Of a stretch of 64,000 bases of DNA, positions 13,058 to 17,704 are shown in pieces. Numbering within the stretch: position 1 is the stretch's first letter; the number at the start of each line of letters is the position of its first letter. Location: positions 31,634 to 95,633 of the forward strand of contig JBBKVX010000083.1 of assembly GCA_037968615.1 (NCBI GenBank), written 5' to 3'. Source of the DNA: Rickettsiales bacterium (GTDB taxonomy: Bacteria > Pseudomonadota > Alphaproteobacteria > Rickettsiales > UBA3002). Under the pieces are notes generated by a model, which was not told where the DNA came from, did not search any database, and saw nothing but the letters and a program-made list of their open reading frames with translations. The position numbers and the translations under genes were made by a program.

Positions 13058-13110
13058 CTCCGACCATTAAAAAAGGCAGCCCGCAAAGGCTGCCTTTTTA
13101 ATGGTCGGAG
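13058..13110. repeat. Long inverted repeat: tRNA-Pro(GGG) terminator extended by an inverted copy of the tRNA 3' end
   Basis: CTCCGACCATTAAAAAAGGCAGCC-cgcaaa-GGCTGCCTTTTTAATGGTCGGAG (24/23-nt arms, one extra A). The right arm includes the last 9 nt of the tRNA. Confidence 0.9.
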
Positions 13111-13178
13111 TGACAGGATTTGAACCTGCGACCCCTAGTCCCCCAGACTAGTGCGCTACCGGGCTGCGCCACACTCCG
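13102..13178 (-). tRNA. tRNA-Pro(GGG)
   Basis: Reverse complement CGGAGTGTGGCGCAGCCCGGTAGCGCACTAGTCTGGGGGACTAGGGGTCGCAGGTTCAAATCCTGTCACTCCGACCA: cloverleaf, anticodon GGG, encoded CCA. Confidence 0.98.
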
Positions 13179-13239
13179 ACATTCCATCTTTCGATGATGG
13201 GCGTTGCTATCGTGTAGTGCCTTGCTTGGCAAGCAAATA

Positions 13240-13833
13240 TCAGATCGTCGAATCATAAACCCAGTAAAACAGCAGCGCCATGCTGCTTACGCCTCCAAGC
13301 AAGCCAACGCCCATCAACAGCCCATCGTTATGCAGGCGCGCCATGCTGAGAAAACCGATGGCCAACGCGGGCAGAATGAGCCCCCCGGGAATGAGGCCCA
13401 ACACATAGGTACTCACCCCCAAAAGCAGAATGAGCACGGTGGAGACATGCTTCCAGCGTCCGGTGGTGATGAGAGTGAATCGCGCGCGCATCATCCGCTC
13501 GGATTTTTTCAATACCGGTAGAGCTTTCTTGATCCAGCGCTTGGCTTTGGTGGTGGGTGCCTTGCGCTTGCGCAGCCACTGAGGCATCCATGGCGTGTCG
13601 ACGAATAGTGATTGCCCAGCCAGCAGCACAATGAACGAACCGAACACCATGGTAGCGCCGGGCAAGCCGCCAATAGGCGACAGCAGCACCAACGCCGTGA
13701 TGAACAGCAATGGGTCGGTCGCCCGCTGCCCAAAGGCTTTCAGTAGGTCGTCGATGGATATGTTCGGCTTGCTGTGATTGGCAACAATGCCCTCCAGCAA
13801 CTCGGAAATATTCTCGGATTGTTTTTTGGCCAT
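13240..13833 (-). CDS. exoD: ExoD-family exopolysaccharide-related membrane protein
   Basis: ISIDDLLKAFGQRATDPLLFITALVLLSPIGGLPG...QSLFVDTPWMPQWL. Start set at MAKKQ. Confidence 0.8.
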   Translation of the reverse strand: MAKKQSENISELLEGIVANHSKPNISIDDLLKAFGQRATDPLLFITALVLLSPIGGLPGATMVFGSFIVLLAGQSLFVDTPWMPQWLRKRKAPTTKAKRWIKKALPVLKKSERMMRARFTLITTGRWKHVSTVLILLLGVSTYVLGLIPGGLILPALAIGFLSMARLHNDGLLMGVGLLGGVSSMALLFYWVYDSTI

Positions 13834-13880
13834 GCATAACAGAACTGGATTTGGCATCAGGATACGATTAGTAAAGCGCA

Positions 13881-14336
13881 ATGGAACCCTACAAACAGCC
13901 GCATGTCATCGCCTACAGCCGACGCCTGATCGAGAGCTATAAGCGCTGGACGGGCTGGAATCTGGTGGGTGGGCGCGATTTTGCCTACGCGCTTTACCAC
14001 GCGCCATTCGCCATTACCTCGCAAGGGGTGCAGGACGATCCGGTCATCCAATACGCCAATCAGGCCGCACTCGATGTATGGGAAACCAACTGGAACGATT
14101 TCATTGGCATGCCCTCGCGCTTGAGCGCCGAAACGGACGAAGCGACCCAGAAGCAACGTGCGGAATTGCTGGACAGCGCCAAAGAGAAGGGCTGGACCAT
14201 CGACTATCAGGACAAGCGCATTTCACGCAACGGCGCGCGTTTTGAAATCCTCAACACCGTGCTGTGGAACGTCACCGACGAGGCAGGCCAGCTTTATGGG
14301 CAGGCCGCACGCATCGGGGCGTGGCGCTACCTCTAG
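13881..14336 (+). CDS. Stand-alone MEKHLA (PAS-like) domain protein
   Basis: LIESYKRWTG...ALYHAPFAITSQ...DPVIQYANQAALDVWE...GMPSRLSAE...RISRNGARFEI...LWNV. Confidence 0.88.
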   Translation: MEPYKQPHVIAYSRRLIESYKRWTGWNLVGGRDFAYALYHAPFAITSQGVQDDPVIQYANQAALDVWETNWNDFIGMPSRLSAETDEATQKQRAELLDSAKEKGWTIDYQDKRISRNGARFEILNTVLWNVTDEAGQLYGQAARIGAWRYL

Positions 14337-15607
14337 ACCAGCTTGTCGCGCCAGTTGTCTTTGTAGGTGTACAGCGCCAGGAACGAACCGATGGCTGCCG
14401 CGACCAACACATACATAATGGAGGTGATGTCCCCCGTTTTTGTAATGAGCTGCTCGGCGAAGGCCGGGGTAAAGCCACCCAGAATCGCGCAGAAATTATA
14501 CGACAGCGACATGCCCGTATAACGGATACGGGTGGGGAACAGCTCCACCAGCATCGCCGGAATCGGCGCCATGTACCAGCCCAGCACGCAGGCCAGCATC
14601 GCCTGCCCAGCAGCCACGTACCAGAATAAGCCGGTCTGCATGAGCTGGAAGGCGGGGTAAATGAGCGCCAGCATGACCACGATGCCGAGCATCAACACTT
14701 TGCGACGGCCAATTTGGTCGGCCAGTTTCGCTGAGGTCCACATGGGCAGGAACATCGCCAGCATCGCCAGCGAATTTACCTGCAGCGAATCCTCTGCACT
14801 GAGGCCGAGATGCTTCTGCGAATAGCCGATCATGTAGATGGCCAACGTGTAGAACGGAATCGTCACGAACAGGTAGAAGCTGAAACCCTGGAACATTTTC
14901 AGGGGGAATTTGGTGAATGCCTCTTTCACGGGCTTTTCGGCCAGCATGCCCGAAGCTTTCGCTTCGTTGTAGATCGGGCTTTCTTCGCCATGGTTGCGGA
15001 TCCAGAAACCAACCACGCCGATGAGGATGCCGACGAAGAAGGGCAGGCGCCAGCCCCAGCTCATGAAATCGTCATGGTCCATGCTGGAGGCGACGGTGGT
15101 GGAGACCACCGAACCGATGAGGAAGCCAATGACCAGCGACATCATGGTGACGCTGCCGGTTTTAGCGCGGGCTTTGGGGTCGGCATGCTCGACGACGTAT
15201 GACATCGAACCCGAGAACGCGCCGCCAAGCGACAGGCCCTGCACGATGCGGATGATGAGCAACAAAATGGGTGCGGCCATGCCGATCGCGGCGTAGGTGG
15301 GCAGCAGGCCAATGGCGCCGGTGGGGATGGCCATCATGATCATGGAAGCGGTGAGGGCTTTTTTGCGCCCGTATTTGTCGCCGATGCGGCCGAACAGCAC
15401 CGCGCCAAGCGGGCGGGCAACAAAGCCTGCCGCGAAGGTGAGGTAGGTCAGAATGAGACTGGTGCTGGGGTTCATCTCCGAGCCGAAGGTGAAGAACAAC
15501 TGCGCGAATACGACGGTCATGTGCCCGTAAAGTGCGTAATCGTACCATTCAAGACCGTTGCCCAGCATGCCCGATACGATGACTTTAGTACGCGAGTGAT
15601 TCGCCAT
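14333..15607 (-). CDS. MFS transporter, MHS family (ProP-like proline/betaine or metabolite:H+ symporter)
   Basis: GNGLEWYDYALY, RPLGAVLFGRIGDKYGRK, RIVQGLSLGG, WGWRLPF and ELFPTRIRYTG. 12 TM helices. Confidence 0.9.
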   Translation of the reverse strand: MANHSRTKVIVSGMLGNGLEWYDYALYGHMTVVFAQLFFTFGSEMNPSTSLILTYLTFAAGFVARPLGAVLFGRIGDKYGRKKALTASMIMMAIPTGAIGLLPTYAAIGMAAPILLLIIRIVQGLSLGGAFSGSMSYVVEHADPKARAKTGSVTMMSLVIGFLIGSVVSTTVASSMDHDDFMSWGWRLPFFVGILIGVVGFWIRNHGEESPIYNEAKASGMLAEKPVKEAFTKFPLKMFQGFSFYLFVTIPFYTLAIYMIGYSQKHLGLSAEDSLQVNSLAMLAMFLPMWTSAKLADQIGRRKVLMLGIVVMLALIYPAFQLMQTGLFWYVAAGQAMLACVLGWYMAPIPAMLVELFPTRIRYTGMSLSYNFCAILGGFTPAFAEQLITKTGDITSIMYVLVAAAIGSFLALYTYKDNWRDKLV

Positions 15608-15774
15608 GTTTTTCCCCTAGATAAGTACGAAGTGGCGGCGAACATAGCGTTCGCGTCATTAATGCCAAGTTTATTCAATGCTGCAGCGCGGCATCCATGG
15701 GGATAAATCCATGAAGATGCATAGAAAAACCGTCCCGACTGACATGAAGCTGTCACAAAAGATTGGTACTGTTG

Positions 15775-17331: not shown

Positions 17332-17348
17332 TCAAAAATAAGGAAAAC

Positions 17349-17425
17349 TGGTCGGGGTGACAGGATTTGAACCTGCGACCTCTTGCTTCCGAAGCAAGCA
17401 CGCTACCAGGCTGCGCTACACCCCG
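17349..17425 (-). tRNA. tRNA-Pro(CGG), with A at position 37
   Basis: Reverse complement CGGGGTGTAGCGCAGCCTGGTAGCGTGCTTGCTTCGGAAGCAAGAGGTCGCAGGTTCAAATCCTGTCACCCCGACCA. Anticodon loop TT-CGG-AA. Confidence 0.96.
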
Positions 17426-17448
17426 ACCTACCCAAAAAGGGAAGCGTG

Positions 17449-17477
17449 CGTATAGCGCTGGGTTTTGGTGAGGTCAA
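17449..17477 (-). promoter_or_regulatory. Sigma-70-type promoter for tRNA-Pro(CGG)
   Basis: Minus strand TTGACC-N17-TATACG (with preceding GC), ending 23 nt before the tRNA 5' end. Confidence 0.6.
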
Positions 17478-17588
17478 GAAGGGGTTTTGAGATTGGGGGT
17501 GAGGCTTGCTCGGCTTCGCCTTTGCTGGGGCTGGGCTCAAGGATTGACGGCATTCGGGTGAATGCCGCCCTGCGGGCTCCTCCCAAGA

Positions 17589-17659
17589 GGTCGGAGTCCA
17601 AATGGCTTGCTGGCCATTTGCGCGAACTGCGGTTCTGCTGAGCAACGCGCACTCCGACC
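17589..17659. repeat. Palindromic element closed by tRNA-Pro 3'-end copies
   Basis: Outer stem GGTCGGAGT (17589-97)/ACTCCGACC (17651-59) encloses hairpins CAAATGGC/GCCATTTG and GCGCG.../CGCGC. Confidence 0.7.
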
Positions 17660-17704
17660 AATAAAAAAGGCAGCGAGAAGCTGCCTTTTTTATTGGTCGG
17701 AGTG
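17650..17704. repeat. Perfect 25-bp inverted repeat: tRNA-Pro(UGG) terminator extended by an inverted tRNA 3' end
   Basis: CACTCCGACCAATAAAAAAGGCAGC-gagaa-GCTGCCTTTTTTATTGGTCGGAGTG. Confidence 0.92.

Follow-up and report, generated by a model that had tools for sequence, protein, structure and literature searches.

Two of the three proline tRNA genes in a stretch of 64,000 nucleotides from a Rickettsiales bacterium (GenBank assembly GCA_037968615.1, contig JBBKVX010000083.1, positions 31,634–95,633; hereafter the window, whose own numbering is used throughout) are each followed by a bidirectional intrinsic terminator, 2 nt (UU or AU) behind the CCA end, the palindrome of which is extended outward. 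Because the palindrome runs outward in this way, the bases past the U-tract are the exact complement of the tRNA's NCCA end and acceptor 3′ strand (the anti-copy). The design was found at most tRNA genes with their own terminator in this alphaproteobacterium, and it is also present in its genus and, sporadically, across the Alphaproteobacteria. Our reading, by analogy with a phage system and at slightly less than an even chance, is that the anti-copy belongs to a functional read-through stem, kept because RNA that escapes termination would complete a duplex that is probably cut by RNase III.

The three tRNA-Pro genes of the window were all predicted on the minus strand (ARAGORN), the strand on which the features of their trailers are also given. 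The tRNA-Pro(GGG) gene (13102–13178; Rfam RF00005, 62.4 bits) contributes its last 9 nt (13102–13110) as the outer 5′ arm of palindrome 1, followed by the inner terminator (13067–13101) and, directly past the U-tract, by anti-copy 1 (13058–13066), the reverse complement of tRNA positions 68–76 and an inverted match of 9 nt that begins at the CCA end. The trailer RNA reads CUCCGACCA UU AAAAA GGCAGCC UUUGCG GGCUGCC UUUUUU AA UGGUCGGAG, with UUUGCG as the loop. The tRNA-Pro(UGG) gene (17694–17770; RF00005, 68.7 bits) contributes its last 11 nt (17694–17704) to palindrome 2, with the inner terminator at 17661–17693 and anti-copy 2, the reverse complement of the entire acceptor 3′ strand and ACCA (positions 66–76), at 17650–17660; here the trailer RNA reads CACUCCGACCA AU AAAAAA GGCAGC UUCUC GCUGCC UUUUUU AU UGGUCGGAGUG, with the loop UUCUC. 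Both sites possess the GC-rich stem-loop, preceding A-tract (A5 and A6, respectively) and following U6 of an intrinsic bidirectional terminator. In a repeat search, palindrome 2 (17650–17704) was a perfect inverted repeat of 25+25 nt (17650–17674/17680–17704) around a 5-nt loop, and palindrome 1 (13058–13110) consisted of two overlapping inverted repeats with a one-base offset (13058–13073/13095–13110 and 13070–13081/13088–13099), which combine to 23 bp and one bulged U. The coordinates, arm lengths and anti-copies of 9 and 11 nt given in a preliminary description of this DNA were thus reproduced from the sequence and the repeat search.

The third gene, tRNA-Pro(CGG) (17349–17425, with its own promoter-like site), had no adjacent palindromic terminator when its trailer was inspected in the same window, and therefore serves as an internal negative example. 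As the GGCAGC cores are common to the two palindromes and the acceptor stems are identical, the two cases are probably not independent of each other. A consensus terminator scanner reported neither 13058–13110 nor 17650–17704, because the stem is extended through the T-tract and no T-rich tail is then left; annotation pipelines and terminator predictors built likewise will miss or mishandle such sites, in which the U-tract is buried in the stem.

The assembly (1.88 Mb, 86 contigs, 59% G+C) was surveyed by listing all 39 tRNA trailers. For tRNAs with their own A-tract/T-tract terminator, the bases past the T-tract tend to complement the end of that tRNA. The tRNA-Leu(CAA) terminator (GGCACCA…TGGTGCC) has perfect 22-bp arms and an anti-copy of 7 nt, and anti-copies of 4–5 nt occur in the trailers of Asn (AGCCA…TGGCT), Lys (CACCA…TGGTG, with a second U5 after the anti-copy), Trp (TGCCA…TGGCA, a 5-nt anti-copy though the 6-nt spacer behind the CCA is unmirrored) and Gly(GCC) (TCCA…TGGA). 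For Gly(GCC), the U7 tract comes after the anti-copy and UCCA:UGGA pairs inside the hairpin. The design first described for proline holds for Pro(GGG) and Pro(UGG), but it is not a peculiarity of proline, being shared with Leu, Asn, Lys, Trp and Gly(GCC) and missing from Pro(CGG). A convergent gene is faced by 6/9 of the tRNA cases in the genome.

When all perfect palindromes in the genome with arms of at least 14 nt were collected, the two longest were the terminators of Pro(UGG) (25 nt) and Leu(CAA) (22 nt), while the ordinary terminators in this set begin exactly at their A-tract. The outward extension was quantified as contiguous complementarity beyond the tracts for all terminators that have both an A-tract and a T-tract; constrained minimum free energy folds with 30-nt flanks were dropped as a measure, since random flanks pair equally, in favour of these strict contiguous-complement counts. 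Extensions at the tRNA terminators were 13, 11, 9, 9, 1 and 0 nt, compared to 0 nt in 44 and 1 nt in two of the non-tRNA terminators (n = 46; Mann-Whitney p = 3e-7), so that chance is far from sufficient to account for the design. The unextended terminators include those after the genes for EF-Ts (tsf), L27 (rpmA), S9 (rpsI), S4 (rpsD), L17 (rplQ), Ndk and thioredoxin. As the ribosomal-protein and EF-Ts terminators are unextended, high expression alone gives no extension, and it was ruled out as the cause by the terminators of tsf, rpmA, rpsI, rpsD, rplQ, ndk and trx.

The tRNA-Pro loci of relatives were collected from 40 genomes ranging from the same genus to the same order (labelled G001 and so on), many examples of which are phylogenetically related, such that counts do not represent independent events. 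The records retrieved with the neighbouring DapA were metagenome-assembled genomes (MAGs) labelled Alphaproteobacteria or ‘Rickettsiales bacterium’, apparently from freshwater where isolate names tell. The design was seen many times at these loci, with an anti-copy matching the local acceptor sequence (acceptor/anti-copy types CTCCG/CGGAG, TTCCG/CGGAA and CCCCG/CGGGG). The source genome has the pair CTCCGACCA/TGGTCGGAG, G001 and G002 have (A/G)TTCCGACCA/TGGTCGGAA(T), G006 and G278 have CCCCGACCA/TGGTCGGG(G) and G040 has GCTCCGACCA/TGGTCGGA. Outside of proline, a tRNA-Lys in G097 has the pair CTCACCA/TGGTGAG and the Leu(CAG) terminators of three relatives have TGGTG; the tRNA-Leu loci were retrieved with a query that was inexact in its 5′ half (identity with the true tRNA-Leu, 86%), the scores of which were not used. 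The anti-copy was retained among relatives while the hairpin core and the spacer past the anti-copy differ. In several relatives the pairing is maintained across bulges, and the hairpins of G018, G021 and G005, which lack a U-tract, still pair with the tRNA end.

Across distinct cases of a tRNA with a terminator (n = 35), the anti-copy reached 3 nt or more in 26, 4 nt or more in 20, 5 nt or more in 14 and 7 nt or more in seven; the proportions expected by chance for 3, 4 and 5 nt are about 8%, 2% and 0.5%. Complementarity per position (29 cases) was highest at the discriminator (93%; A-T, G-C and T-A pairs all present), was 69% at position 72 (G-C, C-G and A-T), remained at ~50% to the tenth base and fell to chance (28%) at the eleventh. 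In most non-proline tRNAs, the anti-copy spans only N72-N73-CCA. The preliminary description had proposed scanning the tRNA trailers of this and related genomes and had named a lack of conservation or co-variation there among the things that would count against its reading; anti-copies do recur, in several tRNA species of the genome and in many relatives, and they follow the acceptor sequence.

A search pattern (ACCA-NN-A5-N10-30-T5-NN-TGGT) made it possible to explore the wider distribution. In 300 evenly sampled Alphaproteobacteria there were 13 pattern sites in 10 other genomes, compared to three sampled genomes with the reversed control pattern, and 10/13 of the sites were located exactly at a tRNA 3′ end (Met, n = 4; Thr, n = 2; one each for Val, Pro, Arg and Lys), including the 9-nt TGGTCGGGG behind a CCCCGACCA tRNA-Pro and the 7-nt TGGTGAG behind a tRNA-Lys. 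In ~285 other Pseudomonadota the pattern was about equally frequent, with only 1/22 loci adjacent to a tRNA. Within these samples, the association with tRNA ends is alphaproteobacterial.

The functional read-through stem that we tentatively favour would operate as follows. RNA released at the U-tract would lack the anti-copy and would mature normally, and RNA passing the inner terminator, whether its transcription began at the tRNA or at a convergent gene, would include it. This read-through RNA would zip into a continuous duplex of 21–26 bp in which the tRNA 3′ end (or its antisense) is trapped, and a duplex of two helical turns would be a substrate for RNase III, cleavage by which would separate the tRNA part from the downstream or antisense RNA and start the decay of that RNA. 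The logic would be that of the lambda sib/tI retroregulator, in which the RNase III stem is completed in read-through RNA only. As to origin, the perfect arms most likely arose through intrastrand hairpin-templated copying with the immutable tRNA as the template, after which selection specific to tRNA genes would have retained the anti-copy.

Several observations are consistent with such a stem. The read-through RNAs are predicted to fold into long hairpins of 24–25 bp (Pro(UGG), −103 kcal/mol, z = −8.4; Pro(GGG), −65 kcal/mol, z = −5.9), in which the anti-copy pairs with the acceptor 3′ strand and the CCA while the cloverleaf and its acceptor stem are lost; a pairing of this kind had been anticipated in the preliminary description, and the predicted folds agree with it. 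As the palindrome is symmetric, the same folding applies to RNA entering from the convergent gene. The total stems (core, tracts and anti-copy) were 17–30 bp (median, about 23) and clustered at 20–28 bp, and an RNase III gene is present in the genome (C60:42511–43137; TIGR02191, 219 bits). The features of a sib-type element that are visible in sequence were all found, namely a terminator nested in a longer stem, a distal arm past the release point and a duplex of ~20 bp or more. The tRNA-Trp trailer without a mirrored spacer, the bulged relatives, the hairpins without a U-tract and Gly(GCC) are hints that pairing, rather than copying, is what matters; for Gly(GCC), the position of the U7 after the anti-copy places the pairing in the terminated RNA. 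A reason for keeping the anti-copy that is specific to tRNAs may be argued from the unextended terminators of other genes, the conservation of the anti-copy relative to the spacer, the Trp trailer and the alphaproteobacterial pattern sites. Under the model, it is possible, though doubtful, that the anti-copy constitutes a dedicated alphaproteobacterial cis element past the terminator (an ‘anti-acceptor’), fitted to the NCCA end and acceptor 3′ strand of each tRNA, that turns transcripts escaping termination in either direction into a double-stranded substrate for nucleases.

A number of findings weigh against a functional stem. The anti-copy lies past the canonical release point, so that the model depends on read-through. 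Many relatives carry just TGG(N) or no anti-copy, making the feature dispensable. Mismatches in the outer stem were G.U in 22 and A.C in 16 instances, a split with no clear bias for G.U over A.C and thus no clear sign that selection acts on one of the RNA strands. The longest examples pair by Watson-Crick rules along the whole of their arms and have A- and T-tracts of equal length, as copying at the level of DNA would leave behind. The extended palindromes of non-alphaproteobacterial genomes lie away from tRNAs (21/22; loci L216–L237 in Gamma- and Betaproteobacteria-type genomes). The ribosomal-protein operons lack the design, though they would be expected to have it if insulation of strong promoters were its sole purpose. 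Lastly, co-variation is imperfect, as the anti-copies of some tRNA-Pro with a CCCCG acceptor (Pro(CGG) in G001, G018 and G023; Pro(UGG) in G014) match the TTCCG type more closely than the tRNA they adjoin, a sign that proline paralogues may have swapped terminator modules.

The palindromes may instead have grown without adaptive value, an explanation that is a serious rival, though we judge it less likely than the functional stem. By quasipalindrome template switching, a nascent strand would fold on the terminator hairpin and copy the opposite arm, leaving an anti-copy without function; as the tRNA arm is immutable, each switching event would rewrite the free flank into the complement of the tRNA. 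The perfect arms of the longest cases (25/25 and 22/22, with equal A6/T6 tracts), the outer-stem mismatches without a clear G.U bias, the absence of the anti-copy from some relatives, and anti-copies that vary in length and are partly decayed (e.g., TGGTCATAAT in G006 and G007) all fit this process. The ACCA…TGGT palindromic terminators away from tRNAs in other Proteobacteria indicate that a generic process of terminator lengthening exists. Such a process should affect every terminator, yet 46 non-tRNA terminators, including those of ribosomal-protein and EF-Ts genes, are extended by 0–1 nt, and 10/13 of the alphaproteobacterial pattern matches are at tRNAs. Further, the anti-copy without a mirrored spacer at tRNA-Trp is not expected from a copying event, and at orthologous loci the anti-copy is better conserved than the adjacent spacer. 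The perfect inverted repeat around a hairpin that template switching leaves is present, but the indifference to gene class that it implies is not. The preliminary description had named template switching as the mundane alternative, which accounts for the perfect arms but, on its own, leaves the 46 unextended terminators unexplained.

A role in termination or processing appears quite unlikely as the explanation. Bidirectional termination would become more efficient if the stem kept zipping beyond the U-tract, or through the presence of a GC-rich downstream duplex; alternatively, pairing of NCCA would hold back RNase P or aminoacylation for as long as the trailer is attached. The UCCA:UGGA pairing of Gly(GCC) within the hairpin that precedes its U7, the second U5 past the Lys anti-copy and the restriction of most non-proline anti-copies to N72-N73-CCA, the single-stranded tail of the tRNA, are in keeping with this role, and terminators beside the CCA in Escherichia coli hinder RNase P and require RNase E (PMC5291269). 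The terminator stem of the 5S rRNA (C27:7892–8007, minus strand; AAGCCU/AGGCUU, then U6) likewise takes the final four nucleotides of the mature RNA into its 5′ arm; this stem and that of Gly(GCC) indicate that pairing of a stable-RNA 3′ end within a terminator stem also occurs in terminated RNA. In the window cases and most others, however, the anti-copy is past the expected release point with no U-tract behind it, and other efficient-looking terminators of the genome have no anti-copy.

Very unlikely, in our estimate, is an element acting at the level of DNA, either as a recombinase target in cruciform or hairpin form or through a small insertion into the tRNA 3′ end, of which the palindrome would be the scar or edge. 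The 25-bp perfect arms and 5-nt spacer of palindrome 2 would allow cruciform extrusion, and the order of features behind Pro(UGG) (terminator, inverted copy, two hairpins, and a direct copy of 9 nt from the tRNA end) could be read as an insertion edge. In the interval from anti-copy 2 to the direct copy (17589–17660 inclusive of both, minus strand), anti-copy 2 is followed by the two small hairpins, CGCG…CGCG and CAAAUGGC…GCCAUUUG, and then by the direct copy, ACUCCGACC, at 17589–17597. The direct copy and anti-copy 2 could close a three-way junction, and the direct copy is possibly a relic tRNA end, though its significance is doubtful. Beyond it, a 14-mer (CACCCGAATGCCGT, window ~17547–17560) matches the tRNA-Pro(CGG) trailer in G002; BLAST of the spacer between Pro(UGG) and Pro(CGG) against all fetched loci returned only terminator similarity and this one 14-mer, and the arrangement of hairpins plus direct copy was seen in no relative. 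Neither site has an integrase or transposase nearby (the neighbours are ExoD, an MFS transporter, an orphan open reading frame (ORF), DapA and a MerR regulator), the direct copy occurs at Pro(UGG) only, when 39 tRNAs would be expected to yield about one such 9-nt match by chance, and there was no match to an Rfam family. As the hairpin cores differ among tRNAs and relatives, they do not stem from a single copied element. On these grounds (no recombinase nearby, one chance-level 9-mer as the only direct repeat and unrelated hairpin cores), a mobile cassette or integration scar was rejected as the general explanation.

An assembly artefact was ruled out, as the sites are interior to a contig of 98 kb and reappear across many independent MAGs, and a T-box-like UGGN:NCCA sensor was rejected given that Rfam returned no match besides tRNAs and that the element lies behind a tRNA gene instead of in a leader.

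Several other features of trailers and terminators were recorded. In the window, an ORF of 522 aa without a Pfam match (15763–17331, plus strand) ends 18 nt before tRNA-Pro(CGG), which is on the opposite strand, and its transcript would need to cross tRNA-Pro(CGG) in antisense to use the Pro(UGG) palindrome as a terminator. In the source genome, tRNA-Arg(UCU) and tRNA-Arg(CCG) (C33:12931–13007 and C61:1771–1847) share a homologous trailer of ~80 nt, …TTAATGACAG…CATGACGCATCAT(G/A)ATAAATCGCGTG, which could reflect the duplication of a module or an att-like site. Four terminators (C2:17627, C16:18797, C32:4032 and C17:48272), one after rpmA and one after ndk, resemble copies of a single module with the pattern (A/C)(A/T)ACGAAAAGGGC(G/A)CC-loop-GG(C/T)GCCCTTTTTTATT(C/G)C. 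Several genomes of the genus have an element, ~CCCTTCGCCC-N-GGGCTTCGGGTGGC(A/T)..GCC, directly after the CCA of Pro, Lys, Asp, Val, Arg, Gly and Leu tRNAs (loci L024, L025, L037, L038, L016/L032, L054, L067, L093 and L095), of which a strict pattern search found no copy in the source genome.

If the anti-copy is functional, it would represent a new step in bacterial tRNA biogenesis, in which a complement encoded with the gene puts read-through precursors and antisense read-in out of action or marks them, and the anti-acceptor, if true, would be an unrecognised layer of quality control and insulation specific to tRNA transcription units. A functional anti-copy would also supply a rule by which sequence is enough to spot these sites. 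Without a function, the design would be a clean natural case of an immutable gene anchoring the directional growth of a palindrome, of use in the study of template-switch mutagenesis and as a guard against over-reading ‘tRNA mimics’ behind tRNA genes.

In terms of class, the elements are best placed among bidirectional intrinsic terminators and tRNA trailers, with the mirrored design specific to tRNAs being what appears to be new. The design was undescribed in the literature searched, and Rfam returned only the tRNAs themselves and sub-threshold noise, with no known RNA family. To our knowledge, the proline tRNA trailers of E. coli have no complement of the tRNA end. The E. coli proK, proL and proM genes resemble the present cases in being monocistronic proline tRNAs with a terminator directly behind the CCA and an AU-rich stretch after it. 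Their terminator is removed in one RNase E step directly after the CCA, in the AU-rich stretch (PMC5291269; PMC8860583), and, in a difference from the present trailers, neither report describes, behind the terminator, any sequence complementary to the tRNA end. Quasipalindrome template switching (e.g., PMC7202029) is the sole simple route to perfect, growing inverted repeats around a hairpin, but it is a mutational process without gene specificity and does not predict a restriction to tRNA terminators. Ordinary bidirectional terminators share the GC hairpin, 5′ A-tract, 3′ U-tract and termination on both strands; in this genome they stop at the A/T tracts, whereas those of the tRNAs run 4–13 nt into the functional RNA with a tailored sequence. 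At E. coli metY-nusA-infB, RNase III cleaves behind metY, and rRNA operons have processing stems for RNase III. A cut specific to double strands would, in both instances and here, free a stable RNA from downstream RNA, though the metY and rRNA stems are made of flanking spacers as opposed to a mature 3′ end and its copy past a terminator. In the lambda sib/tI retroregulator, a terminator is nested in a longer stem and read-through RNA alone completes the RNase III site. The inner terminator, the outer complement past the release point and the duplex of about two turns (21–26 bp here) are held in common with sib/tI; in the present system RNase III cleavage is a prediction, the outer arm is a tRNA 3′ end in place of mRNA, and the design is present at many genes.

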